DNA of 64,000 nucleotides from a bacterium. GTDB lineage: Bacteria; Bacteroidota; Bacteroidia; Bacteroidales; FEN-979. The DNA lies in NCBI GenBank assembly GCA_043806735.1, contig JAZDGR010000052.1, positions 9,995 through 73,994 on the forward strand, in the 5' to 3' direction. The notes under the pieces are model-generated. The model had not been told where the DNA came from. It searched no databases and saw nothing but the letters and a program-made list of their open reading frames with translations. The translations under genes and the position numbers were made by a program. Positions 10,696-56,749 of this stretch are shown here, one piece after another. The number at the start of each line of letters is the position of its first letter. The stretch's first letter is position 1.

Positions 10696-12633
10696 ATGGC
10701 TGAATTAAGTTCAAAAATTCCACAGGGTCCGGTGGCAGAAAAATGGACCCGGTATAAAGCTCATCAGAACCTGGTCAATCCTTCCAACAAACGGAAACTG
10801 GATGTACTTGTCGTGGGAACCGGTCTGGCCGGCGCTTCTGCGGCTGCCTCTCTCGGGGAGCTCGGGTTCAATGTCAAGATCTTCTGTTACCAGGATAGCC
10901 CTCGCCGGGCGCACAGCATTGCGGCCCAGGGCGGGATCAATGCGGCGAAAAACTATCCGAACGACGGCGACAGCATTTACAGGTTATATTACGACACAAT
11001 CAAGGGAGGCGACTACCGTTCGCGCGAAGCCAACGTATACCGGCTCGCGGAAGTGAGTAACGACATCATCGACCAGTGCGTGGCCCAGGGGGTTCCCTTT
11101 GCGCGCGAATACAGCGGGTTGCTGGAGAACCGTTCGTTTGGCGGAGCGCAGGTGTCTCGCACGTTTTATGCCCGCGGACAAAGCGGACAACAGCTGCTGC
11201 TCGGAGCTTACGGATCGCTGAGTCGCCAGATCAAGGAGGGTCAGGTCAAGATGTACAACCGGCATGAGATGATGGACGTAGTGATGGTGGATGGGAAAGC
11301 CCGTGGGATTATCGCGCGTGATCTGATCACCGGGGAACTGGAGCGTTATTTCGGCCATACCGTGATCATTGCTACCGGAGGGTATGGAAACGTTTTCTAC
11401 CTTTCCACCAATGCCATGGGTTCCAACACAAGCGCCATCTGGCAGATCTTCAAAAAAGGGGCTTTCTTTGCCAATCCCTGTTTTACCCAGATCCATCCCA
11501 CCTGCATCCCGGTTCACGGGGATTATCAGTCGAAGCTTACCCTGATGAGTGAGAGCCTCCGGAATGACGGCCGTATCTGGGTCCCGAAAAACAAGGAAAC
11601 TGCCGAAAAGGTCCGCAAAAGGGAACTAAAAGCCAACCAGGTCAAAGAGGAAGACAGGGATTATTTCCTCGAACGCAGATATCCTGCTTTCGGGAACCTG
11701 GTTCCGCGCGATGTAGCTTCACGGGCAGCCAAAGAGCGTTGCGATGCCGGGTACGGAGTTGGAGATACCGGGCTGGCCGTCTTCCTCGACTTTGCCGATT
11801 CCATCAAACGGCTCGGAAAGCACGTGATCGAAGAACGATATGGAAACCTTTTCCAGATGTATGAAAAGATCGTGGACGAAAACCCTTACGAAAATCCCAT
11901 GATGATCTTCCCGGCCGTCCACTATACCATGGGCGGGACCTGGGTTGATTACGAACTGATGAGCACCGTCCAGGGGCTGTTTGTTGCGGGAGAGGCCAAC
12001 TTTTCCGACCACGGCGCTAACCGTCTGGGGGCTTCTGCCCTGATGCAGGGGCTGGCCGACGGCTATTTCGTATTGCCTTATACCATCCAGAACTACCTCT
12101 CGGACCAGATTAATGTCCCCAGGATATCCACAGACAAACAGGAGTTTGCCGCTGCGGAACAAGCCGTCGCGGCAAGGCTTGAGAAACTGATGGTCATCAA
12201 GGGAACAAAATCGGTCGACCATTTTCACAAAGCCCTGGGAAAGATTATGTGGGAATATGTCGGAATGGGGAGAAACGCGGAGGGGTTAAAGAAGGCCATC
12301 GCCCTGATCAGGGAACTCCGGGAGGATTTCTGGAAAGAGGTAAAGATCCCCGGAAAAGCAAACGAAATGAATATCGAACTCGAGAAGGCCAACCGGGTAG
12401 CCGACTTCCTGGAACTCGGGGAGCTGATGGCCCTCGACGCCCTGGAGCGGAATGAAAGCTGTGGCGGCCATTTCCGCGAAGAGTTCCAGACCGAAGAAGG
12501 AGAGTGCTTGCGCGACGATAAAGATTATATGTATGTTGCCGCCTGGGAGTACAAAGGCGAAGGCGAATTCGTACTACATAAGGAGCCGCTTGTTTACGAA
12601 GAGATCGAGGTGAAGCAGCGGGTGTACAAATAG
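10696..12633 (+). CDS. sdhA: succinate dehydrogenase / fumarate reductase flavoprotein subunit
   Basis: 645 aa. FAD-binding motif [31 protein letters not shown], and the C-terminal [10 protein letters not shown]. Confidence 0.92.
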
Positions 12634-12661
12634 CGATTAGGGATTAGGGATTAGGGGTTAG
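12634..12661. repeat. heptanucleotide tandem array (GGATTAG)x4, left bracket of the four-helix-bundle cassette
   Basis: Reads cgattag ggattag ggattag gggttag and starts on the base after the sdhA TAG stop. Confidence 0.9.
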
Positions 12662-12669
12662 AATTGTAA

Positions 12670-13053
12670 ATGAATGTGCCAAAGAAAATAGTGTCGTATC
12701 ATGATTTGGAGGTCTGGAGGCGTGGCGTGGAATTAGTAAAACAGGTCTATAAGATAACATCTGGATTTCCAAAATCTGAGTTATATGGTATGACTTCTCA
12801 GATTCGCAGGGCTGCTATTTCATTTCCTGCAAATATCGCTGAGGGTTGGGGGCGGGAATCCTCAAAAAACTATATACAGTTTTTGCGAAATTCCAGAGGT
12901 TCTTTATTTGAATTGGATACATTGCTAATAATTACACAAGAACTCAGTTATATTTCAACCGATCAAAGTAATAATATCCGGAAGGAAATAAATGAGCTTG
13001 GAAAAATGTTAAACTCAATTATTCAAAAAATCAATGCAAGGATTTCGGAATAG
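12670..13053 (+). CDS. four-helix-bundle protein (23S rRNA intervening-sequence protein / Avd-like family)
   Basis: 127 aa. Family-typical text: YHDLEVWRRGVELVKQVYKITSGFPKSELYGMTSQIRRAAISFPANIAEGWGR...FLRNSRGSLFELDT. It is inserted between sdhA and sdhB. Confidence 0.85.
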   Translation: MNVPKKIVSYHDLEVWRRGVELVKQVYKITSGFPKSELYGMTSQIRRAAISFPANIAEGWGRESSKNYIQFLRNSRGSLFELDTLLIITQELSYISTDQSNNIRKEINELGKMLNSIIQKINARISE

Positions 13054-13070
13054 CTTTCTAGTTCCTCAAC

Positions 13071-13119
13071 CCTAATCGCTAATCCCTAATCCCTAATCCC
13101 TAATCCCTAATCGCTTATT
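13071..13119. repeat. heptanucleotide tandem array (CCTAATC)x6 plus one degenerate unit, right bracket, inverted relative to 12634-12661
   Basis: Reads cctaatc gctaatc cctaatc cctaatc cctaatc cctaatc gcttatt and ends on the base before the sdhB ATG (13120). CCTAATC is the reverse complement of GATTAGG. Confidence 0.9.
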
Positions 13120-13860
13120 ATGAAACTTACGCTCAAGATCTGGAGGCAAAAAGACGCTAAATCGAGAGGAAAATTTGTTTCCTACAGCATCGACAACATT
13201 TCACCAAACTGCTCCTTTCTGGAGATGCTCGACATCCTGAATGAACAGTTGATCGGGAAAGACGAGGAACCCGTGACCTTTGACCACGATTGCCGCGAAG
13301 GGATTTGCGGGATGTGCAGTTTGTACATCAACGGCCGTCCGCATGGTCCCGACGACGCCATCACCACCTGTCAGCTCCATATGCGGAAGTTCAAAGACGG
13401 CGAACCCATTGTTGTCGAACCTTGGCGGGCTAAGCCTTTTCCCGTGATCAAGGACTTGATCATTGACCGGACGGCCTTTGATAAGATCATTCAGGAGGCC
13501 GGCTACATTTCTGTGAGAACGGGAGGGACGCCGGATGCCAACAGCATCCTGATCAGCAAGGTCGATTCCGATCTGGCCATGGATGCTGCGGCTTGCATCG
13601 GGTGCGGCGCCTGCGTGGCCGCCTGTAAAAATGCTTCGGCCATGTTGTTTGTTTCAGCTAAGGTTTCCCAGTTTGCGCTTCTTCCTCAGGGGCAGGTGGA
13701 AGCAAAGGAACGTGTGAAAAAGATGGTGGCCAAGATGGACGAACTGGGGTTCGGGAACTGCACCAATACTTATGCCTGCGAAGTCGAATGTCCGAAGCTG
13801 GTTTCCCGCTCCAACATCGCCCGGATGAACCGGGAGTTTATTTTTGCCAAGATTCTTTAG
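13120..13860 (+). CDS. sdhB: succinate dehydrogenase / fumarate reductase iron-sulfur subunit
   Basis: 246 aa with three Cys clusters: [33 protein letters not shown]. Confidence 0.92.
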
Positions 13861-13968
13861 CCCCTAAATCCCCACTTGCCCCCAAACCCCCTAAAGGGGG
13901 CTTATTCCCGCTTCGCGGGATTATCCTCCTGAAAAGGAGGAGTAAGTCCCCTTCAGGGGATTTAGGGG
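13861..13968. repeat. 108-bp nested-palindrome element (terminal inverted repeat CCCCTAAATCCCC / GGGGATTTAGGGG)
   Basis: Starts on the base after the sdhB stop. A 13-bp perfect terminal inverted repeat encloses the mini-hairpins ccccctaaaggggg, cccgcttcgcggg, cctcctgaaaaggagg and ccccttcagggg. Confidence 0.85.
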
Positions 13969-13983
13969 CAAACGAGACAAGAC

Positions 13984-15096
13984 ATGAAATTCATTGATAT
14001 CCAGACAGACAAAACAATCAAGCAGAAGTTGATCCAAACCATTCAGGATCAGCGAGTCAGCCATGCTCAGTTGTTTTATGGACCCGAAGGGTCAGGAAAA
14101 CTGGCCCTGGCCATCGCATATGCGCAGATGATTAATTGCACTGCCCCTAAATCCCCTGACTTACCCCCCGGCCCCCTAAAGGGGGAGGTTTCCCCCCAAG
14201 GGGGAAGTAAGTCCCCTTTAGGGGATTTAGGGGTGGACTCCTGCGGCATCTGCCCCTCCTGCATTCAGTTCCAGAAACTGGCCCATCCCGACCTCCACTT
14301 CTTTTATCCTACCGCTACCACGAAACAGGTTTCATCCAAGCCTTCCAGCAAACATTTCATCGAAGAGTGGAGGAAGTTTCTCCTGGAAAATAACTACCGG
14401 GTGAACCTGGCCGGGTGGTACGATTTCATCGGGATTGAAAACAAACAGGGGACGATCTATGCCGACGATGCCAACGAGATCAACCGCATCCTGAGTTACA
14501 AGAGCTATGAGTCGGAATACAAGGTCGTCATTATCTGGATGATCGAAAAACTGTTTCATGCAGCCGCGCCCAAGTTGCTCAAGATCCTCGAAGAACCACC
14601 CGAAAAGACACTGTTCATCCTGGTTTCCGACAACCCCGATCAGGTCATTCCGACCCTTGTATCCCGTTGCCTTCCGGTGAGGATTCCAAAGATTCAACCA
14701 GAGGAGACGCGGTTGACTTCGAAAGAGGATCAGGTTCTGTTTGAGACCTTCCGGAAATGGATGCGGATCTGTTTTGCCAACAACATTCCCGAACTAATCG
14801 GTTTTGCATCTGACGTGGGGAAAATCGGCAGGGAAAAGCAAAAAAGCCTTCTTCAGTACGGACTGGACCTTTCGGGAAACGCGCTCGCTCTCCGGCATGG
14901 GTTTTTCCGGGGATCAGCTTCCGGAGGCGAAGAATCGGAGTTCATAAAAAAGTTTTCGCCGTTCCTTTCCGAAACAAAACTGCTTCCCTTTTATACCCTG
15001 CTCAACTCCTCCATCTACCACATCGAACGCAACGCCCATGCGCCGACGCTCTTTCTTGATCTGTCGTTGAAGTTCACCGGGCTGCTCAAAAGATAA
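13984..15096 (+). CDS. holB: DNA polymerase III delta-prime subunit (clamp-loader), carrying a 30-codon repeat-derived insert
   Basis: 370 aa. It has GPEGSGK, the zinc-module-like CGICPSC...HPDLHFFYP and the SRC motif LVSRCL. An extra segment PKSPDLPPGPLKGEVSPQGGSKSPLGDLGV sits just before the Cys module. Confidence 0.8.
   Translation: MKFIDIQTDKTIKQKLIQTIQDQRVSHAQLFYGPEGSGKLALAIAYAQMINCTAPKSPDLPPGPLKGEVSPQGGSKSPLGDLGVDSCGICPSCIQFQKLAHPDLHFFYPTATTKQVSSKPSSKHFIEEWRKFLLENNYRVNLAGWYDFIGIENKQGTIYADDANEINRILSYKSYESEYKVVIIWMIEKLFHAAAPKLLKILEEPPEKTLFILVSDNPDQVIPTLVSRCLPVRIPKIQPEETRLTSKEDQVLFETFRKWMRICFANNIPELIGFASDVGKIGREKQKSLLQYGLDLSGNALALRHGFFRGSASGGEESEFIKKFSPFLSETKLLPFYTLLNSSIYHIERNAHAPTLFLDLSLKFTGLLKR
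14144..14233. repeat. 90-bp nested-palindrome element, same family as 13861-13968, in frame inside holB
   Basis: It has the same 13-bp termini (cccctaaatcccc ... ggggatttagggg), an inner inverted pair gacttac/gtaagtc, and the mini-hairpins ccccctaaaggggg and ccccccaaggggg. Length is 90 nt, i.e. 30 codons. Confidence 0.85.
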
Positions 15097-33944: not shown

Positions 33945-35726
33945 TTAATTTACACAGAACTTCACGGTCATATCATCCAGAAAAAAAGTAGTGCGGTGTT
34001 TATTCCAGCAGTACACCTTAATGTAAGAGTCAGTGTCGTACCATTCAGGGAGGGTAAATGTTGTAGTAATCTCGTTCCATTTCCCCATTTCCCTGAGTAC
34101 CGGATCTATCTCGAATGATTGCCATATGATTGATCGTCCTTCTTTTTCTACTGAGCATACAATCACAGCGCCCGTCAAACTATCTCCCGGATTCAACACC
34201 CATGAGTTCACCAGGATTTGGGTTGGAAACGCAAGGTCAAAGTCTTTTGCGGCTTTTATTACACCCCCGCAAAATTCAATGGAAGGATTAAAAACAGCAC
34301 AATGGGAATAGGAATGATACACCGAATCGGTTATGAAAAAATAGGAACGATCATCTGAAGGTTCATAGGTAATTGTCACCTTGTCCAGTGTTCGGTACAG
34401 GTGTATAAGGTCATCCGGGAGGATGCTTGCCTTTGTCAGATTCACTAAATACGTCCTGAAATCCCAGGTATCCGCTTTAAAACACATCGTATAATACCAG
34501 GAGGAAAGTATGTTGATATAGACGATAACAAGAAGGACTATTCCACCTGCAAACTTCCCAATCCAACGGGTATGATTCCATGCGGATTGCAGCAGAAATC
34601 CAAGGGGAATGCTGAAGACCGCATAGTACTCGATAAAACAACGGTGCCCGAAACCACAACCGAAGTACCAGGAGTACCAGGAAGCGCAAAGGTAGCTGAC
34701 CAACAGAAAGAGAAAAAGAAACTGCCATCCGTTGCGGATCTTTTTCAGGATCATCGCTCCCATTCCCAGGATCATAAGGATGGCGAGGGGTGTATTCAGG
34801 AAAAGGCCATTTTTTGGGGCAAACCACACCTCGAGGAGAAAGGGATGGCGCCAGTTCGTAAATCCTTCGTGATCATATGAATAAACCAGGAAAGAGCCAA
34901 AGCCATATTTCCAATAAAGCATCTGGGGGAATACGACAATCAACAGGCAGATCAGGAAGGTAAGCAGGTACTTCGGTTTCATAAAAATCGAGAACCTTGT
35001 GAAAAGAGCTTGCCCGGTTTGAACATTCCATAAGAAAAAGAGAAGGAGAATGATCCCGTTGATTGGCCGGATGATCACTGCCAGGGAAAAAGAAACCGAA
35101 AGTAACAAAAACCATTTCCATCGACGGGTTGCCATAAACCTCAGCAAGGCAAGCAGGTAAAGTGAAAACACAAAAAAAGAATAGATATGCGACATCGATG
35201 TTGCAATCATGGAATAATAGAAAAGATTCGTTCCTGTAAACACAAGCAGTAAAACAATGTACTGAATCAATGGCCGGAAAAACTCCCGGAGTACCTGTTT
35301 CAGGATCAGCAATCCCAGAATGAGATAGACAACAGCTGCCACATCGATCATGCGATGATAGATGGGGGAAAATCCTTTATCTTCAGAAATATTCAGGGCT
35401 TTTGCGATCCCATGAGCAGAGATAAAGAATGGGGAAAGCAGGGTGGATACTCCATAAAAATATTTGGTTTGAATGGTATTCTGTTCTTTATTCAGATGGA
35501 ACGCGTTTCCTGTTTTCTCTGCGATATTTTCCGGCAGCTTATCCGCTTCAAAGTCTGCAAAAAATAACGAAGGAAGATAGATATAGTACCCAGCTCCATC
35601 AGCCCAGATCACCCCTTTCCAGGTCAAATTATCGCGATTGTCATGGAGCAAGAATGTCAGCCCTAGTGAGATCATAAACAAGATCAGAAAAAACAGAAGA
35701 CCCGGAATGTCAGCTTTTTTCTTCAT
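33945..35726 (-). CDS. GT-C-like polytopic membrane protein (ArnT/PMT/YfhO-like architecture) with C-terminal CBM-like module
   Basis: 593 aa. Roughly 11-13 TM helices are followed by a ~150-aa soluble tail ending in KVYCWNKHRTTFFLDDMTVKF. It is a paralogue of the next gene. Confidence 0.5.
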   Translation of the reverse strand: MKKKADIPGLLFFLILFMISLGLTFLLHDNRDNLTWKGVIWADGAGYYIYLPSLFFADFEADKLPENIAEKTGNAFHLNKEQNTIQTKYFYGVSTLLSPFFISAHGIAKALNISEDKGFSPIYHRMIDVAAVVYLILGLLILKQVLREFFRPLIQYIVLLLVFTGTNLFYYSMIATSMSHIYSFFVFSLYLLALLRFMATRRWKWFLLLSVSFSLAVIIRPINGIILLLFFLWNVQTGQALFTRFSIFMKPKYLLTFLICLLIVVFPQMLYWKYGFGSFLVYSYDHEGFTNWRHPFLLEVWFAPKNGLFLNTPLAILMILGMGAMILKKIRNGWQFLFLFLLVSYLCASWYSWYFGCGFGHRCFIEYYAVFSIPLGFLLQSAWNHTRWIGKFAGGIVLLVIVYINILSSWYYTMCFKADTWDFRTYLVNLTKASILPDDLIHLYRTLDKVTITYEPSDDRSYFFITDSVYHSYSHCAVFNPSIEFCGGVIKAAKDFDLAFPTQILVNSWVLNPGDSLTGAVIVCSVEKEGRSIIWQSFEIDPVLREMGKWNEITTTFTLPEWYDTDSYIKVYCWNKHRTTFFLDDMTVKFCVN

Positions 35727-37606
35727 TACTCTTTTACGGGTTCCAGCAATTCGATCAAAAGGTCATCCATATAAAAAGGTTGTTTGCCGCGGTTCCAGAT
35801 ATAGACTGCCAGCACATCTTCCGCGTCGGTCACAAACGGAATCTCGTAATCCATACTTACGGGATTCCATTCCCCAACCTTCAGGGAATCATCTGCCAGC
35901 TGGATCGATTTGTATTTGTAGTTGTTTTCTTTCCCGGTCATGGTCACCACCAGGTTGGCCGGACTCTCTTTCATTTCAACGGTAGGGTAGACAAACAGGG
36001 TCACCCGGAGCCAGGAACCCTCTTTCGCTGCGAGCTCATTGTAGGCTACCTTAATCCCGGGGGAGAATTCAACGGTCGAGTCCATCTGATACGAATGGCT
36101 GCCAGCCTTCACGATGGTTCTGGAAAGATGCGGGTCCTGATCTGCCCCCTGGTATTCAAAGGTATAATTGGCAAGTACGCGCTTTGTAAACTGCTGACCC
36201 TCCTTCAGGAATTCGCGGTCGGAAGTTTCCACAACCTCCAGCAGTTTTTTGCTGGATTCTTCCACGTGTGTCCGACCAAAAATAGCCCAGTAGTATTCTT
36301 TCGTCATCCGCGACGGGTCAATGATCCAGGTCATGTACTGCCAGGTCTGGAACAGGTTAAGCCAGATAAAGAAAGCTGCAACAACGAAGAACACCAGCTT
36401 CAGCCAGATGCGGCGACGAAAGATCCAGGTGATGAATGCCCCGAAGGGGATCGCCAGTAAGGCATAGGATTGCATGAGGGACCGTTGGCCCAGACTGCCA
36501 CCATACCACCAGGTTGTCCAGGAGGAGACGATGAGCAGGTTGACGGTAAAAAAAAGGAATGCTGCCCAGAAGAGTTCCCGTTTCTGCCGCCAGAGGAAGA
36601 TAAAACCTGCCACCGGAAAACACATCATGGGAGCATAGATCAGCCAGCCCTTTTTCCAGGAAAAGAGGACAAACATGATGTAAGGCGCCAGGAACCGCAA
36701 TCCCTCCCCTTCTTCGTAACTGTAATACAAAAATCTCCCGGAATAGATCTTCCAGTAGATTAATTGGACTGAACCCACCAGCAATACGCACAAACCCATA
36801 CCAATGACCTGTGACCAGTGACTAGTGACTAGTGACAATTTTTTCTGCAGGGTATCTTTATTCCATATACCCCAGAGCAGGGGGATCAGTGCACTGATGA
36901 TCTCGGTAGGACGAATCAGGACCGCGAGGCCCACAAACAAACCCAGCGGTATGGCAAATCTCCATTTCGGCGTTTCATGCCATTTCATGGTAAACCAGAT
37001 GATGAGGGCATAAATGGCAAACAGCGTGTTGTGCACCATTGCCCCGTCGTATGCGGTAAGCTGGAAAAAGTTGGTTCCCAGGATCAGAAGTACCATGACA
37101 ACCGAGGTGACAACATCCGAAAAGTACCTGATCAGGATCTTGCGCAGAAACCAGATGCCGATGACGGTATAAATGAGGCATCCCATGGCAATGGAAAACT
37201 GGTAGGGCAGTGAAAACCCGTCTTGGACATAACCGAGAGCACCTGCCAGCCAATGGGCAAGAAAGAAAAAGGGTGAGAACAAAATAGCCATCCCCATCGG
37301 GTATTTCAGGATGTAGTGCTCTTCGGGGCCCATATAGGCCTGATAAAACCCGATGGTGGGTCCATATTTGTCGAGGATCTGCTGAAGCCAGGAGAAATCG
37401 GATATTCCCAGGTCATGATAGATGAACTTTGCCGGAAGGTAGAGGTAATAACCAAAAACATCCCATGAGAGGATCGAAAGTACATCATAGGTCAGCCAGC
37501 GCGGGAGTAAAAACCTGCCCAGAATTACTCCGGCCGATAAAATCAGAAAGGTAACGCCGGAGATTGGGGCAACTGCTTTATTCTTCACCATTAAACCGGT
37601 TGTCAC
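35726..37606 (-). CDS. GT-C-like polytopic membrane protein (ArnT/PMT/YfhO-like architecture) with C-terminal CBM-like module
   Basis: 626 aa with the same architecture as 33945-35726. The tail ends in [21 protein letters not shown]. It overlaps the GT2 gene by 4 nt and the next GT-C-like gene by 1 nt. Confidence 0.5.
36802..36836. repeat. heptanucleotide array, 5 units (nnGTGAC), translated in frame inside the GT-C-like gene
   Basis: Plus strand: caatgac ctgtgac cagtgac tagtgac tagtgac. On the coding strand it is read as TTG TCA CTA GTC ACT AGT CAC TGG TCA CAG GTC ATT, giving [12 protein letters not shown]. Confidence 0.85.
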
Positions 37607-38373
37607 TTTGTGTATTTCCTGTCAAAAATGTTGTACCGGATCAGGCAGATCACGGCTCTCAGCGCATCTTTCATCCGGATTTTCTTTCCTTCTTCATAGG
37701 TTCTTCCGTAGTAGGAGATGCCCACTTCATAGATCCGGATCCCCGGAAACCGTGCGATTTTGGAGGTGACTTCCGGCTCAAAGCCAAACCGCTGCTCCTT
37801 AAAATGGATTTGTTTCAGGAACCCGGCACGGAACAGCTTGTAGCAGGTCTCCATGTCGGTAAGGTTGAGGTTGGTAAAGAGGTTGGAGACGAAGGTCAGG
37901 ATCTTATTCCCGATCGAGTGCCAGAAAAAGAGGATCCGGTGGGGACGGCCTCCCATGAAACGGGAACCATATACCACATCGGCGACGCCATCCAGCATAG
38001 GTTTTAACAGCACTTCATATTCCTGGGGATCATATTCCAGGTCGGCATCCTGAATAATAATGAACTCCCCTGTTGCCAGCTCAATGCCTTTATGGATTGC
38101 TGCACCTTTGCCCTGGTTGAAGGGCTGTGAGAAGAACTGGATAGTGGTGACTGGTGACTGGTGACTGGTGACTGGTGACTTTTCAATGTACTCTTTGACG
38201 ATCTCTCCCGTATTATCCGTTGAGGCGTCGTTGGTGACAATGATCTCTTTTTTGAGTCCGCCGGGCAGGGTCGCCGAAAAGACCTTGTCAAGGATCCGGG
38301 TGATGGTTTTTCCCTCGTTAAAAGCCGGGATCAGGATGGAAAGTGTTTGATCCATGGAAGTAGAATTATTCAT
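37603..38373 (-). CDS. family 2 glycosyltransferase, small soluble polyprenyl-phosphate-sugar-synthase-like type
   Basis: 256 aa. [21 protein letters not shown] and the DxD motif [12 protein letters not shown], plus NQGKGAA. It contains the repeat-derived segment [11 protein letters not shown]. Confidence 0.8.
38145..38179. repeat. heptanucleotide array (TGGTGAC)x5, translated in frame inside the GT2 gene
   Basis: Five perfect units. The coding strand (TCACCAG)n is read as [11 protein letters not shown]. Confidence 0.9.
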
Positions 38374-40921
38374 GAAAATAGATGCGTTTCACGCGTCTTG
38401 AAATACTGGTCAGGATCTCATACGGTATCGTCTCCAGGGTTTTGGCCAGCTCCGTTACCGGGAAGTCGTCCCCGAAAATGATCACCAACTCCCCTTCGTT
38501 CACGGGGGTTCCGCTTTGCACAATCTGCGTAATGTCCAGCATGCAAAGATCCATGCAAATGTTGCCGATCACCGGGGCGCGAACCCCTTTCACCAGCAGG
38601 TGCCCGCGTCCATTTCCCAGTTTGCGGTCTAATCCGTCGGCATATCCCACCGGGACTATTGCTATGAGGCTGTCCTTATATGCTTTTCCGATGCGGTTAT
38701 AGCCGATGGTTTCTCCTGCTTGTATGGTTTTAATCTGGGTGATGACCGATCGTAAAGTGCTCACATTCCGCAGGCGCTTTTGCTCGACTTCATCATACCC
38801 TACCCCGTAAAGGCCGATCCCCAGCCGGACCATCTCGAACTGACCCTCTGGGAACCGGCTGATTCCTGCCGAATTCAGAATGTGCCTTAACACCGGGTAT
38901 CCGACAGCTTGCCTGATTTTTTCGCTCATTTCGATAAACTTGCGGAACTGTTCGCCCGTAAAGGGATCCAGATTCGGGTCTTCGCTTCCCGCAAGATGGG
39001 AGAATACGGAACAAACCCGAATGGTGTGACTTCCCGTGATTCTTTCGATCAATGCATCGAGCTCGTCGGGACAAAAACCCAGCCGGTGCATCCCGGTATC
39101 CAGCTTGATATGGATTGGAACGGCTTCCCTGGACCCGGTCGGATTCCGGTCAATGGCTTCCTCCAGCATGCGCAGGATCCGGTGGTTGTATATCTCCGGT
39201 TCAAGGTTGTAATTCAAAAGCGTTTCAATGCTCTCTTCTTCCGGACTCATCACCATAATGGGCAGACTGATGCCGGCGTTTCGCAGTTCGACGCCTTCAT
39301 CGGCATAGGCAACAGCCAGGTAATCGACATGATTGAACTGAAGCAGGTTGGCGATCTCGTAGCTTCCACTGCCGTATGAAAAGGCTTTTACCATCGCCAT
39401 AATTTTTACACCCGGTTTCAGTTTGGCCTTATAGAAGTTGAGGTTGTGAACCAGGGCATCCAGGTTGATCTCCAGTACCGTTTCATGCGATTTTTGCTGC
39501 AATGCCTGGCTGATCCGCTCAAATCCGAACAGGCGGGCGCCTTTCAGGAGAATGGTCTCGTCGCGAAAGGACGAGAGCGGGAAGTGATTTAGGAACTCAT
39601 CAGTAGTTTCAAAGAAGGCTTTCTGCATCGGAAACTGATGCAGGTTCCGTGAAATATCCGGACCGATTCCGATGATCCGGTCAATTTTTTTCTCCGCCAG
39701 GATCCTGGCGATTGTTCCGTACAGTTCCTCCTGGCTACGGCCTGTTTGCAGGATATCCGACAGGATCAGGGTCTTTTTCCGGTGCTGGTTCTGCTGCACG
39801 AGGAAATCCAGGGCAATGCCCAGCGAATTGATGTCGGAATTGTAGCTGTCGTTGATGAGGGAGCAATGGTTGATCGCCTCCTTGAGTTCGAGGCGCATGG
39901 CGACGGAAGTCAGGAGGGGGAACCGATCGGTGATACGAGATACGGGATCCGGGATTCCTAACACCATCGTCAACGCCCAGCAGTGAATTGCGTTTTCAAC
40001 AGAAGCTTCGTCGGTGAAAGGGATGGTTATTTCGATCTCTTTTTGTTGATATAATCCCCGGATGCAGGAATGTCCCTGCTCTTTTCGGATCTCTTTGATC
40101 ATCAGGTCATCTCTTTCCCCGCTCCCCCATGTAAACCGCTTCAATGCCGTGTATTTTTCCGACCGCTCAAGCAGGTCGCCGATCATCCGATAGTCTGACC
40201 GGTAGATCAGGATATCAGAGTGCACAAAAATCTTCAGCTTCTCTTCCGCTTTTCCTTCATATCCGCTGAAGTGTTCATCATGCGCCGGGCCGATGTTGGT
40301 GAGGATCCCGATGGTCGGTCTGATGATCTCTTCCAGCCGGTCCATTTCCCCGGGTTGTGAAATTCCGGCTTCAAAAATAGCCAGGTCATATCGGGGTTCC
40401 ATTTTCCAGACCGACAGGGGTACTCCGAGTTGGGAATTGAAGCTTTTGGGACTGCGGATCACTTGGAAATCCGGAGAAAGCAACTGGTACAGCCATTCTT
40501 TCACGATGGTCTTCCCGTTGCTTCCCGTGATCCCGATTACCGGATATCCGAATTGCTTCCTGTGATGGGCGGCGAGTTGCTGGAGGGCAGTCAGGGTGTC
40601 GGAGACCAGGATAAAGACAGGATCCCGTTGCTTCGCTGCGCTCGCAATGACAATGTTTCCTGCCAACTGCCAACTGCCAACTGCCAACTGCAAATTGCTG
40701 ATCAGGAAGCACTTCACGCCCTTTTCCGCCAGCTCCCGGATGTACCGGTGACCATCGTTCCGGCCGCTTACAAGGGCAATAAAGAGGGTCCCTTCGGGAT
40801 TTGCAAGCCGCCTGCTATCAATGAGCAATTCTGATATGGCCGGATCTGCCGGAGCTGAAGAAATCACCTCCCCGTCGGTGATCCGGGCGATCTCGCTGGC
40901 GTTATATTGAAGCACACTCAT
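38366..40921 (-). CDS. murF: bifunctional UDP-MurNAc-tripeptide--D-Ala-D-Ala ligase (MurF) / alanine racemase (Alr) fusion
   Basis: 851 aa. Mur ligase P-loop GITGSNGKT in the N-terminal half. Alr PLP-site block [12 protein letters not shown] and the C-terminal PVGYADG in the second half. It carries a repeat-derived insert [24 protein letters not shown]. Confidence 0.85.
40661..40695. repeat. heptanucleotide array (TGCCAAC)x4 plus one degenerate unit, translated in frame inside murF-alr
   Basis: Reads tgccaac x4 then tgcaaat. The coding strand (CAGTTGG)n is read as [11 protein letters not shown]. Confidence 0.9.
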
Positions 40922-53300: not shown

Positions 53301-53721
53301 CGACGATCCGGGTAACCCCGCCCGTGTTGTAAGTATCCCAGTCGCCGTACAATCCGATGTTGCTTTGCTTCAGATCCGACAAGTTGTTGAAAATGATGAA
53401 CTGGATCTTATCCTCCAGTCCCGACTGCAGCATCAGCTCGATCTCCCGGATGTGCTGGTCGGCATATTCGGCCGTAAACTGTGCCAATTCCTTTCCGTTG
53501 AGGTAATAATAGGTGTCAAATTTGTCGAACCGGAAATAGGTCCAGAAGAAGTCGTTAAACTGCACCCGGCTCTTCCCGAAATTGAGCTGGGAGCCGTTGT
53601 AAAACTGGGCATGTAGAGAAGGAAGAAGGAAGAGGGAAGCGGGAAGAGGGAAGAGGGAAGAAGTAAGAAGAACAGTACGGAGAACGACAGTGAAAAGTCG
53701 GTGGTTTCTTTTTCCAGGCAT
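50368..53721 (-). CDS. large outer-membrane protein: N-terminal peptidase-MA-like region, TolB-like beta-propeller, C-terminal Omp85/BamA-like barrel
   Basis: Start moved to MPGKRNHRLFTVVLRTVLL, which gives a signal peptide. TolB-like repeats: SPDSRIVAYTT, WHPSGKILAI, YSGDGALLAFSAV...SDIFVYN, PGSGEIIFSSNR. The C-terminus ...IFYFSLSLDF ends in an OMP beta-signal Phe. Confidence 0.55.
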   Translation of the reverse strand: MPGKRNHRLFTVVLRTVLLTSSLFPLPASLFLLPSLHAQFYNGSQLNFGKSRVQFNDFFWTYFRFDKFDTYYYLNGKELAQFTAEYADQHIREIELMLQSGLEDKIQFIIFNNLSDLKQSNIGLYGDWDTYNTGGVTRIVGGRVMLYFDGDYAHFEEQIRSGIATVILNQMMYGTGIGAQIKNNALFTMPEWYMNGLISYISTKWNTEVDNIVRDAVLGGKYRKFNRLTGIEATWAGHSLWHYISVRYGEAAIPNIVYMARLSRNIEKGFLYVVGLPYKTLLDDWLAYYQALYSTQDFDRTNPVGQLLNRKYKPNRVYRQLKLSPDSRIVAYTTHELGIYKVYLLDIETGKKKRIYRAGYRLAERPDYTFPFLAWHPSGKILAILTERKGENWLYFYNVEEKLFDHQILYNFQKILDMGYSGDGALLAFSAVQKGKSDIFVYNIAAGSHEQLTNDVYDDFNPRFLPGSGEIIFSSNRVSDTVRFYPEVDLEKLTFINDIFVYNYRAKSPLLKRITHTPLANEIQPMPYADGLFCYLSDENGIYNRYLARFDSVISYIDTATHYRYFTTAFPVTNYKRNIVEQDLSLAAAGIGEVVVGQQYSRMYRMDMMLPGQVSSATLKPTTFMDRERKKVELQEAISKGDTVIKPIEIIAKPGKKHFRTVLLSDVIGDLQPADARDSSYLKMLQKKHGMIRTPQDTTSLMTLLNTPVQDTLNKYKQAKALNYNVEYAIDEMVTQIDFTYLNTSYQPFSGGLQPVFINPGLNVLFMVGVTDLMEDYRISGGVRLNFDLVNNEYIFSYLNCKRRLDQQIIYHRIGVDEFGVYSYIRHKVNELYYIAKYPFTPVLNVSGTASIRYDRAVYLSTDQLNLKQPDVNTIWGSLKGELTYDNTRNYGVNLYYGTRYKFFGEYYQTVNKPGNNVFILGMDIRHYQKIHRTMIWANRLAASTSFGSNKLVYYMGGVDNWLWPRFDMNTPVAFDQNYVFQTLATNLRGFQQNIRNGNSFFVINSEIRLPVFRYFFNRPIRSDFLNNFQVVAFGDLGTAWTGISPWSEDNQLFKKYIYRNPLFIQVEMIKDPLVGGFGGGLRTRLLGYFLRADLAWGVEDGHIRKPIFYFSLSLDF
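53617..53672. repeat. purine/pyrimidine heptanucleotide array, 8 units (AGARGGA-like), encoding the signal-peptide core of the Omp85-like protein
   Basis: Plus strand: agaagga agaagga agaggga agcggga agaggga agaggga agaagta agaagaa. The coding strand is read as LLTSSLFPLPASLFLLPS, followed by LHAQ. Confidence 0.85.
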
Positions 53722-54741: not shown

Positions 54742-55737
54742 ATGAAGATTCTGGTAATCCGGTTCAGTTCTATCGGCGACATCGTCCTGACGACCCCTAT
54801 TGTCCGGTGCCTCAAGGAGCAGTTGCCTAACGTGGAGATCCATTACCTCACCAAGAAGCAATATATCCCGGTCCTTCAGGCAAATCCATATATTACTAAG
54901 ATTCAGCTTTACAAAGAGAACTTCCGGGAGCTGGTTCCGAAGCTGAAAGCCGAACGGTTTGACCGGATCATTGATCTGCATAAAAACATCCGTTCCCATT
55001 ACATCCGGTTTTGTTTACGGAAACCTGCCACTTCATTTCCCAAAGTTAATTTTCAGAAGTGGCTGATGACCCGGTGGAAGATTGACCTGCTGCCCCCTAT
55101 TCACCTTGTAGACAGGTATTTTAAGGCAGTGGAACCGTTGGGCATCCGGAATGACGGTAACGGACTGGATTATTTTTTACCTGATCCGGGACAATTTTCC
55201 GTTTACGAGAGATTTCCCGATCTCACAGGTAGGTTCATCGCGATTGCTATCGGCGCCCGGCATGCTACCAAAATCTATCCGGCCGCCAAGGTGTCTGAAC
55301 TGTGCGATCTGTTGCCTTTGCCTGCGATTCTGCTGGGAGGAAAAGAGGATATGGCACGCGGGGAAGAGATCATCAGGATAACCCGCGCAAAGGTCTTCAA
55401 TGCCTGCGGACTGCTCACCCTCAACGAATCGGTTTCGGTAATCTTCCAGGCTGTTCAGGTAATTTCCAACGACACCGGGATGATGCACATCGCGGCAGCC
55501 CTGAAGAAGCCGGTGATCAGCCTTTGGGGAAACACTATTCCCGGATTCGGCATGTACCCGTATTTCCCCGAAGAGTGCAGCCATCTTTCGACCCTGGTTG
55601 AAGTGAAGAGCTTGTCCTGTCGTCCCTGCAGCAAGCTGGGGTACCCAGAATGTCCGAAAAAACACTTCGATTGCATGGAGAAGATCGACCCGAAGGCTGT
55701 TGTGGAGGCAGTGAGGCTGGTAAACAGTGAACAATGA
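54742..55737 (+). CDS. family 9 glycosyltransferase (LPS heptosyltransferase-like)
   Basis: 331 aa. MKILVIRFSSIGDIVLTTP, the C-terminal half ISNDTGMMHIAAAL and PCSKLGYPECP. The last residues and the stop codon lie inside the CAGTGAA array. Confidence 0.8.
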   Translation: MKILVIRFSSIGDIVLTTPIVRCLKEQLPNVEIHYLTKKQYIPVLQANPYITKIQLYKENFRELVPKLKAERFDRIIDLHKNIRSHYIRFCLRKPATSFPKVNFQKWLMTRWKIDLLPPIHLVDRYFKAVEPLGIRNDGNGLDYFLPDPGQFSVYERFPDLTGRFIAIAIGARHATKIYPAAKVSELCDLLPLPAILLGGKEDMARGEEIIRITRAKVFNACGLLTLNESVSVIFQAVQVISNDTGMMHIAAALKKPVISLWGNTIPGFGMYPYFPEECSHLSTLVEVKSLSCRPCSKLGYPECPKKHFDCMEKIDPKAVVEAVRLVNSEQ

Positions 55738-55766
55738 ACAGTGAACAGTGAATAGTGAACAGTGAC
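55725..55766. repeat. heptanucleotide array (CAGTGAA)x6 with variants
   Basis: Reads cagtgaa caatgaa cagtgaa cagtgaa tagtgaa cagtgac. It spans the GT9 stop (55735-55737) and ends 3 nt before the tatD ATG. Confidence 0.9.
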
Positions 55767-55769
55767 CGC

Positions 55770-56549
55770 ATGGCAGTTTTTGCAGATACCCACGCACACC
55801 TTTACCTGGAAGCGTTCGATGAGGATCGGGAGGAGGTCATCAGGCGTGCAGTTGAGGCGGGAGTACATTACCTTTTTCTGCCAAACATAGACACATCGAG
55901 TATCCCGTATCTCGCATCTCTTATCTCACAGCATCCCGGCTATTGCTTCCCCATGATGGGCCTTCATCCCGGTTCCGTGAAAAATGACTTCCGGGAGCAA
56001 CTGGGAGTCATTGAAATGGAACTCCGGCAAAACCCCGGAAAATACTGTGCGGTGGGTGAGATCGGGATTGACCTATACTGGGATAAGACATTTGCCAAAG
56101 AGCAGGAGGTTGTGTTTGTCAGGCAACTGGAACTGGCACTGGAGTTTAACCTCCCGGTCGCTATCCATACCCGCAATTCGATGGAACTTGCGCTGAAGTT
56201 GGTGGAAGGAATGAAGGATCCGGCCCTGTGCGGAGTGTTTCACTGTTTCAGCGGAAACCTTGCGCAAGCGAACCGGGCGATTGAACTGGGATTCAGACTG
56301 GGGATTGGTGGGGTAGTCACTTTCAAGAACTCCGGTTTGCAGACTGTGGTGGAGGAAATTGAGCTCGAACACCTGCTTCTGGAGACCGATGCTCCTTACC
56401 TGGCGCCAGTGCCGTTCCGGGGCCAGCGCAACGAACCGTCTTATATTCCGTATATTGCGGAGAAGCTAGCGGAATTGAAAAAGCTGTCTGTGGAAGAGGT
56501 AGCGGCAGTTACGACGGAAAGCGCGTTGAAGTTATTCGGTTTGCATTAG
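55770..56549 (+). CDS. tatD: TatD family metal-dependent hydrolase/nuclease
   Basis: Start moved to MAVFADTHAHLY (HxH motif). Further blocks: GEIGIDLYW, VAIHTRNS, FHCFSG, LLLETDAPYLAP. Confidence 0.85.
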   Translation: MAVFADTHAHLYLEAFDEDREEVIRRAVEAGVHYLFLPNIDTSSIPYLASLISQHPGYCFPMMGLHPGSVKNDFREQLGVIEMELRQNPGKYCAVGEIGIDLYWDKTFAKEQEVVFVRQLELALEFNLPVAIHTRNSMELALKLVEGMKDPALCGVFHCFSGNLAQANRAIELGFRLGIGGVVTFKNSGLQTVVEEIELEHLLLETDAPYLAPVPFRGQRNEPSYIPYIAEKLAELKKLSVEEVAAVTTESALKLFGLH

Positions 56550-56669: not shown

Positions 56670-56716
56670 CAATCCAAAAAAAACAGAGAATAACGAAAAG
56701 TGAAAAACGAATAACT

Positions 56717-56744
56717 ATTCACTATTCACTGTTCACTGTTCACT
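56717..56744. repeat. heptanucleotide array (RTTCACT)x4, inverted relative to 55725-55766
   Basis: Reads attcact attcact gttcact gttcact (gtttag). TTCACTG is the reverse complement of CAGTGAA. It ends 5 nt before tRNA-Ser. Confidence 0.9.
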
Positions 56745-56749
56745 GTTTA

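Follow-up and report, generated by a model that had tools for sequence, protein, structure and literature searches.

Palindromic repeats that are read in frame and tolerated within genes are already known, first from Rickettsia and later from occasional repetitive extragenic palindromic (REP) sequences. The passages on Rickettsia in two reports describe palindromic repeats of ~100–150 nt that lie in frame in unrelated functional genes, are translated into additional peptides where the protein fold can accommodate them, and occur as the same insertion in related species (PMC10969869, PMC3733652). In-frame REPs in loops have been reported for replication and repair genes and for subclass 2.4 tnpA-REP genes of Cyanobacteria and Bacteroidetes (PMC3733652, PMC6006769), and REP/REPIN repeats lie mostly downstream of genes and produce no target-site duplication (PMC3733652, PMC3116915). 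Here, a 64,000-nt stretch of DNA from an uncultured member of the Bacteroidota (Bacteroidales, FEN-979; GenBank assembly GCA_043806735.1, contig JAZDGR010000052.1, positions 9,995–73,994 of the forward strand; hereafter the window) was analysed with respect to a 90-nt nested palindromic repeat within the holB-like gene for the delta-prime subunit of the clamp loader. The repeat is probably a degenerate copy of a REP/REPIN-like interspersed palindromic repeat, which was inserted in an ancestor, is read through and is tolerated as a loop of the protein.

The element opens with CCCCTAAATCCCC(T) and closes with (A)GGGGATTTAGGGG. An initial annotation, made from the letters of the window, had described a 90-nt nested palindrome with reverse-complementary ends, an inner inverted pair and C5/G5 mini-hairpins, all of which were found in place; the perfect terminal repeat measures 14 nt (14144–14157 / 14220–14233), and two mini-hairpins of the C5/G5 type lie between the ends (Table 1). 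The 108-bp copy with the same termini that had been noted 176 bp upstream, in the spacer between sdhB and holB, was likewise recovered. It begins directly after the stop codon of the sdhB-like gene (13858–13860), ends 176 nt before the holB copy and carries one mini-hairpin more (13906–13923). Measured on the single strand against dinucleotide shuffles, the holB copy folds at -54.7 kcal/mol (z -3.5) and the spacer copy at -59.9 kcal/mol (z -6.5). The four 13-mer ends of the two copies are the sole exact matches in the window. In both copies the left hairpin is without its G-run arm and the right-end module alone is intact; in the spacer copy a second, variant left arm, CCCCCAAACCCCC-TAAA-GGGGG-CTTA, pairs with the one right end. 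Both are degenerate, compound members of a repeat family, and the unique 13-mers, the strong folds and the recurrence of the paired ends at 120 or more loci of other genomes place the holB element beyond chance.

Per strand of the element only one reading frame is open, reading PKSP...GDLG, and on the holB strand this is frame +3; the open reading frame (ORF) of holB reads ...INCTAPKSPDLPPGPLKGEVSPQGGSKSPLGDLGVDSCGICPSC... across the insert. The element enters the gene at the second base of codon A54, so that the 30-residue peptide quoted in the initial annotation corresponds to 14146–14235, not to 14144–14233. Tryptic peptides predicted from the region are GEVSPQGGSK and SPLGDLGVDSCGICPSCIQFQK.

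The product was assigned to delta-prime by a PF13177 (DNA_pol3_delta2) match (E 3.9e-38, 131 bits against a cut-off of 27), which falls into two stretches divided at the insert. The best NCBIfam model was TIGR00678 (holB), with 153.6 against a cut-off of 180.6, and 163.9 once the insert was removed. In practice the insert lowers the family-model score a little (10 bits); the protein is already annotated as ‘hypothetical’ (the source metagenome-assembled genome has the NCBI protein tag V1733_03775), and the insert alone was ruled out as the cause of that annotation, since the score without it is still below the cut-off. Homologues are named delta-prime by JGI. The AlphaFold2 model (mean predicted local distance difference test score, pLDDT, 78) has the three-domain clamp-loader fold, with HolB (9a80_B) and the E. 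coli clamp-loader gamma/tau and delta-prime chains as top Foldseek matches (probability 1.00). The VSRCLPV motif is present, the Walker A motif GPEGSGKL is without Ser/Thr, and IIWMIE replaces hhhhDE.

As had been claimed, the element sits in frame before CGICPSC, between C52 and C87 of the zinc module. C52, C87, C90 and C93 are invariant in the homologue alignment A1, the last three as CGxCxxC, and the counterpart of C52 in E. coli gamma is the Cys of LNCET, the first zinc ligand. The loop between the first two Cys has 8 or 9 residues in 24 of the 27 distant Bacteroidota loci in which it was found (29–47% identity), in agreement with the short loop expected of other delta-primes. In E. coli clamp-loader proteins there are likewise 8 residues between the first two Cys. 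The spacing is 34 residues in the window protein against the C-x8-C baseline of Bacteroidota, so that the extra sequence is real, with an excess of ~26 residues and not exactly 30. In the AlphaFold2 model pLDDT is below 50 at residues 59–81 and 77–91 in the neighbouring blocks. A surface loop had been proposed; the model gives the insert no confident structure, and the low confidence would fit a flexible loop of the zinc module.

To characterise the repeat family, one genome per species was scanned for the two ends at a distance of 55–85 nt, and at least 120 loci were obtained. Among the matches listed were ~38 Bacteroidota, 9 cyanobacterial, 4 Fibrobacterota, 4–5 Spirochaetota and 2 Hydrogenedentota genomes; the family is thus present in at least five bacterial phyla. 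In its members a variable centre is enclosed by two inverted end modules of ~25 nt. On the left the module is CCCCTAAAT-[C4-5 loop G4-5]-ACTT, in which the loop varies between phyla; the right module mirrors it, and the single-strand form of the end module is CCCCTAAATCCCC-loop-GGGGACTT. The hairpin with its ACTT was not required by the search pattern, yet it stands at 75–100% of the ends in each phylum, and 179 of 198 hairpins have a C-run as long as their G-run. Longer, lineage-specific palindromes contain the conserved module as their inner part in a cyanobacterium and in Larkinella. Complete genomes rich in copies are those of Larkinella punicea and Leptolyngbya sp. AN10 and the Larkinella chromosome NZ_OZ245776.

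Copies lie mainly outside genes (123 of 126), in tandem (54), convergent (21) or divergent (7) intergenic settings among 82 copies, and 48 of 75, like the spacer copy of the window, are located no more than 50 nt from a stop codon. The remaining three of the 126 are spanned by a long ORF in the PKSP...GDLG frame: the holB copy of the window, one in the HATPase_c domain of a Saprospiraceae histidine kinase (L069), and one that splits the aminotransferase domain of a cyanobacterial BioF-like protein (L086). Several right-end modules in tandem are also found in a RefSeq-annotated DUF1156 gene on plasmid pAQ6 of Picosynechococcus sp. PCC 7002, a tractable organism for testing the translation of such modules; they read AAGTCCCC-loop-GGGGATTTAGGGG (L183, ~1380–1560), inside an annotated coding sequence of a model cyanobacterium. 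The initial annotation had also remarked that both copies are multiples of three in length, which for the intergenic copy proved to be a coincidence: lengths modulo 3 are distributed 54:29:42 in the family, the surplus at 0 is due to a single cyanobacterial subfamily of 102 nt, and a multiple-of-three rule was rejected.

No target-site duplication was seen in 122 copies, the flanks being inverted (GC|..|GC, TG|..|CA) and extending the palindrome. No distant end pair enclosing a gene, as expected of an autonomous element or parent insertion sequence with the same ends, was found among 120 loci. Of the label ‘MITE/REP-like’ the REP-like behaviour therefore stands, while the miniature inverted-repeat transposable element (MITE) is not supported. 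Against Rfam, the element matched nothing at gathering score and gave only generic hairpin hits below threshold; a literature search for its motif returned only unrelated papers; and there were 0 matches in viral contigs, hence no phage carriage was seen. The family may have moved by a single-strand (HUH-type) or another duplication-free mechanism.

The insertion is not private to the source genome. Orthologues with 65–78% protein identity carry the element or its remnants at the same holB site, and those with similar residues also carry the repeat DNA, which, together with the paired ends at 120 or more loci and the loop of 8–9 residues in distant Bacteroidota, bears out the claim of an interspersed repeat as opposed to native holB sequence. 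Five orthologues (L121, L122, L123, L124 and L126; 66–74% identity to the window protein) have family copies in the loop. All five keep the right-end module, and four of them have an identical junction, GGGGATTTAGGGG-T-N-GA(C/T); the left end is decayed in L121, L122 and L123. In L126 and P0006, diverged duplicates of the right end come after an intact copy. Two right ends are found in L124, whose holB copy is of the three-hairpin ‘spacer’ subtype (79% identical to the spacer copy of L123). The spacer copy itself is shared by the window, L121 and L123 but missing from L122 and L124. In the closest relative (L125, 78%) a 22-nt scar, CCCCTAAATGGGGATTTAAAGG, is all that is left, as would be expected of a deletion of the palindrome interior, and in L127 and L128 only short pieces of the left or right end remain. 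None of the nine orthologous loops contains a stop codon, and each has a length that is a multiple of three.

Since the element has collapsed to a scar in L125 and to fragments elsewhere, the peptide appears dispensable. Judged from these sequences, the insert would be old in the lineage, foreign, dispensable and unstable in length, which argues for tolerance and against exaptation of the peptide; of the two words offered by the initial annotation, ‘tolerated, or exapted’, the former seems to fit better and the latter is not supported.

The following course of events is proposed. In an ancestor of this uncultured Bacteroidota lineage a copy would have entered the delta-prime gene between the codons of the first and second zinc-binding Cys, landing in the one stop-free reading phase of its strand. 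Ribosomes would read through it, producing a flexible loop rich in Pro, Gly and Ser on the zinc module, which the clamp loader would tolerate and which may be functionally neutral for the protein. The insert would later have been passed on, with local duplication and trimming and, in some lineages, nearly complete deletion, presumably after one ancestral insertion at holB. It would remain in frame throughout because the essential AAA+ and collar domains lie downstream.

Table 1. Positions, in the window, of the two repeat copies, their parts and the genes that carry or adjoin them.
Feature	Position	Strand	Basis or remark
Nested palindromic repeat, 90 nt, in delta-prime gene	14144..14233	+	Perfect 14-nt inverted ends; fold; open frame
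Left end CCCCTAAATCCCCT of holB element	14144..14157	+	G-run arm of the family's left hairpin absent after the left end
Inner pair GACTTAC / GTAAGTC of holB element	14158-14164 / 14207-14213	+	Between the terminal repeats
Mini-hairpin 1, CCCCCTAAAGGGGG	14172..14185	+	Retained in orthologues L121, L122 and L126
Mini-hairpin 2, CCCCCCAAGGGGG	14192..14204	+	Compensated form CCACC..GGTGG in L126
Right-end module TAAGTCCCC-TTTA-GGGGATTTAGGGG	14208..14233	+	Best-conserved part of the element across all orthologues
Sister copy, 108 nt, sdhB-holB spacer	13861..13968	+	Ends shared with holB copy; fold; extra mini-hairpin
18-nt perfect complementarity, right end of spacer copy against left end of holB copy	13953-13970 / 14142-14159	+	Inverted-repeat search
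Delta-prime (holB-like) clamp-loader gene, 370 aa	13984..15096	+	PF13177, TIGR00678, AlphaFold2/Foldseek
Zinc-module coding region	14137..14262	+	C52 (14137-14139), C87 (14242-14244), C90, C93; insert between C52 and C87
sdhB-like iron-sulfur subunit gene	13120..13860	+	Fer2_3 and Fer4 families; stop codon abuts spacer copy

Several observations weigh against this course of events. Four-fold degenerate sites of holB are 33–42% identical between the window and its orthologues and thus close to saturation, and despite this the element is 81–92% identical; third-position identity is 0.8–1.0 over residues 61–90 and 0.3–0.6 on both sides. Between the window and L126 elements, 7 changes are nonsynonymous and 1 is synonymous. 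Decay would have been expected of an old insert that was passively tolerated. The spacer subtype in the holB gene of L124 and the intact copy beside an older remnant in L126 also make one ancestral insertion too simple a history. No mobilising enzyme was found around the copies of the family, and it is the kept frame on its own that suggests translation of the insert.

The nine differences between the window and L126 elements fall at five first, three second and one third codon positions, and include one compensated stem change (CCCCC/GGGGG to CCACC/GGTGG); three further compensated pairs were found in the three-hairpin subtype. Selection at the protein level cannot give this substitution pattern. 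Recent exchange of a larger gene segment is excluded by the drop of third-position identity on both sides. Hairpin-templated correction of quasipalindromes can yield compensated stems without selection; it can explain the stems and cannot explain the identity between lineages. The explanations that remain are a constraint on DNA or RNA structure, or recognition by a protein, which would hold the sequence of the family, and renewal by re-insertion or gene conversion.

Under renewal, the holB copies would be non-orthologous, the site having been re-invaded or refreshed by gene conversion with an element or remnant as preferred target, so that the copy of each lineage would be young. High nucleotide identity at saturated synonymous distance would then be expected, and so would the spacer subtype at holB of L124, its two right ends, and the intact copies followed by older right-end remnants in L126 and P0006. 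However, the two-hairpin subtype common to the window, L121, L122 and L126 was seen only at holB, the right junction GGGGATTTAGGGG-T-N-GAC is identical in these same four, and donors are rare, the window having 2 copies in its 64 kb and the relatives very few in 80 kb. We consider renewal unlikely, while giving it some weight.

A further proposal, to which we give little credence, is that the CCCCTAAAT-hairpin-ACTT module represents an undescribed, GTAG-less REPIN-like family held constant across five phyla by a horizontally spread protein or cellular function, that the copies in and upstream of holB are no passive passengers but are kept at the nucleic-acid level as a cis-element embedded in the coding sequence of an essential gene, and that in this Bacteroidota clade the zinc loop is a general, perhaps targeted, landing site for repeat DNA.

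A reading in which selection on nucleic-acid structure keeps the spacer copy and the in-gene copy as cis-elements tuning holB expression after the sdh genes, with the peptide as a by-product, seems improbable to us. Such an element could act as an mRNA hairpin, a processing site or a long-range alternative pairing around the start codon. The third-position profile speaks for it, as does the placement of substitutions in loops and linkers, with the changes in mini-hairpin stems compensated. In addition, the holB copies group across genomes and not with the spacer copy of their own genome, and are as alike across genomes (83–89%) as the two copies of one genome are (89%). Over 18 nt the spacer copy, at its right end, is perfectly complementary to the holB copy, at its left end; the match is longer than the terminal pairing of either element itself, and its two arms enclose the ribosome-binding region of holB, its start codon and the first 53 codons; this is a possible alternative pairing in the transcript, as read from the sequence. 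Against such selection, most of the element is gone from the closest relative and from several others, the spacer copy is missing in L122 and L124, the left end is decayed in L121–L123, and the compensated changes can arise selection-free through the templated correction described above.

Exaptation of the insert as a functional delta-prime loop, for instance as a new interaction surface, would account for the peptide motif SKSP(S/L)GDLGV common to several orthologues, but 7 nonsynonymous changes to 1 synonymous with conserved third positions are the opposite of what protein-level selection would leave, close relatives have lost or replaced the loop, and it has no confident AlphaFold2 structure; we regard this reading as very improbable. 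An assembly artefact, which palindromes can cause, or a ribosome bypass of the kind by which GC-rich hairpin elements are skipped during translation in yeast mitochondria, is dismissed almost entirely, because independent NCBI, ENA and JGI assemblies carry the same insertion and because stop-free loops with lengths in multiples of three would not be needed in all nine orthologues under bypass.

The gene order sdhA-sdhB-holB-PSP1-gldH-PBP is kept in the relatives, and consensus scans found no terminator or promoter inside the spacer copy. A PF05635 / TIGR02436 four-helix-bundle gene (‘23S rRNA intervening sequence protein’, Avd-like) is situated between sdhA and sdhB of the window (12631–13115, gene 12670–13053, + strand), flanked by a 30-nt inverted repeat, 97% complementary, of tandem heptamers (GATTAGG)n. 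The same cassette occurs at the same place in L124 (5037–5580), and one with a different heptamer at a different location in L121 (4450–4966); with its long stem and the ORF in the loop it looks like a mobile cassette. Identity of the repeat element with the arms of these cassettes was ruled out, the cassettes of the window, L124 and L121 being bordered by inverted heptamer arrays, and a PF05635 homologue was present at 1 of 120 element loci, where it was not adjacent. More distant relatives have a conserved ORF of 54–57 aa without a Pfam family upstream of holB (L180 7670–7843, L181 7150–7314, L182 107–280, L131 446–607, L132 2766–2921), which is absent from the window. In delta-prime itself, a segment of ~33 residues (e.g. 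EIKEYLVGKTGCSLAEAQTVTRASYGNIKQAMHKL; A1 columns ~350–381, window residues ~236–243) is absent from the window protein and most close homologues and retained in P0009, P0011, P0012, P0014, P0018 and P0088; AlphaFold2 confidence dips nearby, at residues 240–244.

A motif scan of 1.25 Mb yielded one gene resembling a REP-associated tyrosine transposase (RAYT), in the sdhB-holB spacer of a relative whose delta-prime is 56% identical (L181, 7311–7841, + strand, 176 aa); the spacer therefore does receive mobile DNA. The protein has the motifs NHIH, WQ and YIRKNP, its sole NCBIfam match is the REP-associated tyrosine transposase model (E 3.5e-10) and its sole PDB match is E. coli TnpA-REP (4ER8). The gene is followed, immediately before the holB start, by ~17 copies of an 8-nt tandem repeat (GATGTGCT). 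A RAYT as partner of the present family was rejected, as the L181 gene is without family modules and no remnants were found elsewhere. A tblastn search with a RAYT-like protein around the family copies found no RAYT, and no ORF with HUH/Y1 motifs was detected in ~1 Mb around 124 copies, although with 8 kb covered per copy and RAYTs being single-copy genes their absence is not implied. On a plasmid of Spirosoma sp. KNUC1025 a homologue of the L181 gene, likewise encoding a RAYT-like transposase, has immediately behind it a different REP, a perfect GTAG...CTAC ‘double-foot’ palindrome (GGTAGAGACAAGGCATGCCTTGTCTCTACC; L185, 1960–1995). A copy of the CCCCTAAATCCCC element is found at a distance of 20 kb, so that this plasmid harbours two distinct families of palindromic repeats.

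The zinc loop accepts more than this one family. Among the 120 closest delta-prime homologues (at least 52% identical) it measures 7–64 residues, with 10 or fewer in only 18, so that 85% are expanded. Signatures of the present family were found in 13 of the 120, and other loops are translations of different, unrelated kinds of repeat DNA, such as (ATTACGA)4 read as FTNYELRITN in L180, (GGACGAA)n read as GDEGRGT heptads in L182 and GC-rich palindromes in L181. The simplest reading is that the loop is unusually permissive and that an essential gene can retain insertions only at a site of this kind.

Heptamer arrays are also common in the window. One, (TGGTGAC)5 at 38145–38180, is read in frame in a glycosyltransferase-like protein (ORF 37603–38373, - strand), and a related array, (ACCAGTG)5, is placed at 36800–36836 in the gene of a 626-aa membrane protein (ORF 35726–37606, - strand); the peptide SPVTSHQLPVTS occurs in the delta-prime zinc loop of homologue P0109 as well. 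A 264-aa ORF (55755–56549) is bracketed by (AACAGTG)6 and the inverse (ACTGTTC)5 at 55723–55765 and 56714–56747, and isolated arrays, (CTGCCAA)4.6 and (AGAAGGA)7.7, stand at 40660–40691 and 53617–53670. These arrays resemble the short tandemly repeated heptamers of cyanobacteria.

What is new here is the host, an essential clamp-loader subunit of an uncultured member of the Bacteroidota, and an end module that is identical in five phyla. The case shows how much a delta-prime zinc-module loop can absorb, and the holB site offers a natural series of intact, duplicated, trimmed and scarred inserts that is useful for studying the gain and purging of palindromes in genes. Beside the cross-phylum module and the behaviour of the loop as a sink for repeats, the point of interest is the unexplained nucleotide conservation inside an otherwise saturated gene, the one feature that could point beyond tolerated selfish DNA.

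Compared with the described systems, the family shares with MITEs such as Correia, ERIC and Nezha the small size, terminal inverted repeats, interspersed distribution, strong transcript hairpins, the lack of a coding capacity of its own and, in some cases, in-frame fusion to host ORFs (PMC10969869). Unlike MITEs, it leaves no target-site duplication, no related insertion sequence with the same ends was found at the 120 loci, and the conserved module is internal, not terminal, in the cyanobacterial and Larkinella palindromes. With REP/REPIN repeats it has in common short hairpin units (modules of ~25 nt) paired in inverse orientation into a hairpin of ~100 nt, the missing target-site duplication, the bias towards positions downstream of genes with depletion between divergent genes, and occasional in-frame intragenic copies in loops; its spread over Cyanobacteria, Bacteroidetes and scattered phyla is similar to the published range of RAYT subclass 2.4. 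In contrast to REP/REPIN repeats, the foot of its hairpin has neither GT[AG]G nor CGTC, the neighbours being ACTT/AAGT and TAAAT/ATTTA, GTAG occurs in the flanks of only a few copies, and no RAYT stands beside any of the 124 copies within the 8 kb covered for each. The family is thus undescribed and REP/REPIN-like, and in the absence of the GT[AG]G foot it is not an established member of that class. Like the palindromic elements of Rickettsia, the holB insert is an in-frame palindrome in a functional gene that is common to relatives; unlike those elements, which belong to Alphaproteobacteria and have nearly half of their copies within genes, the present family has ~2% intragenic copies and extends over at least five phyla. 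The host phyla differ and the likeness is one of functional analogy only, in which sense the holB insert would work, by mechanism and behaviour, like the protein-coding palindromes of Rickettsia and the intragenic REPs.

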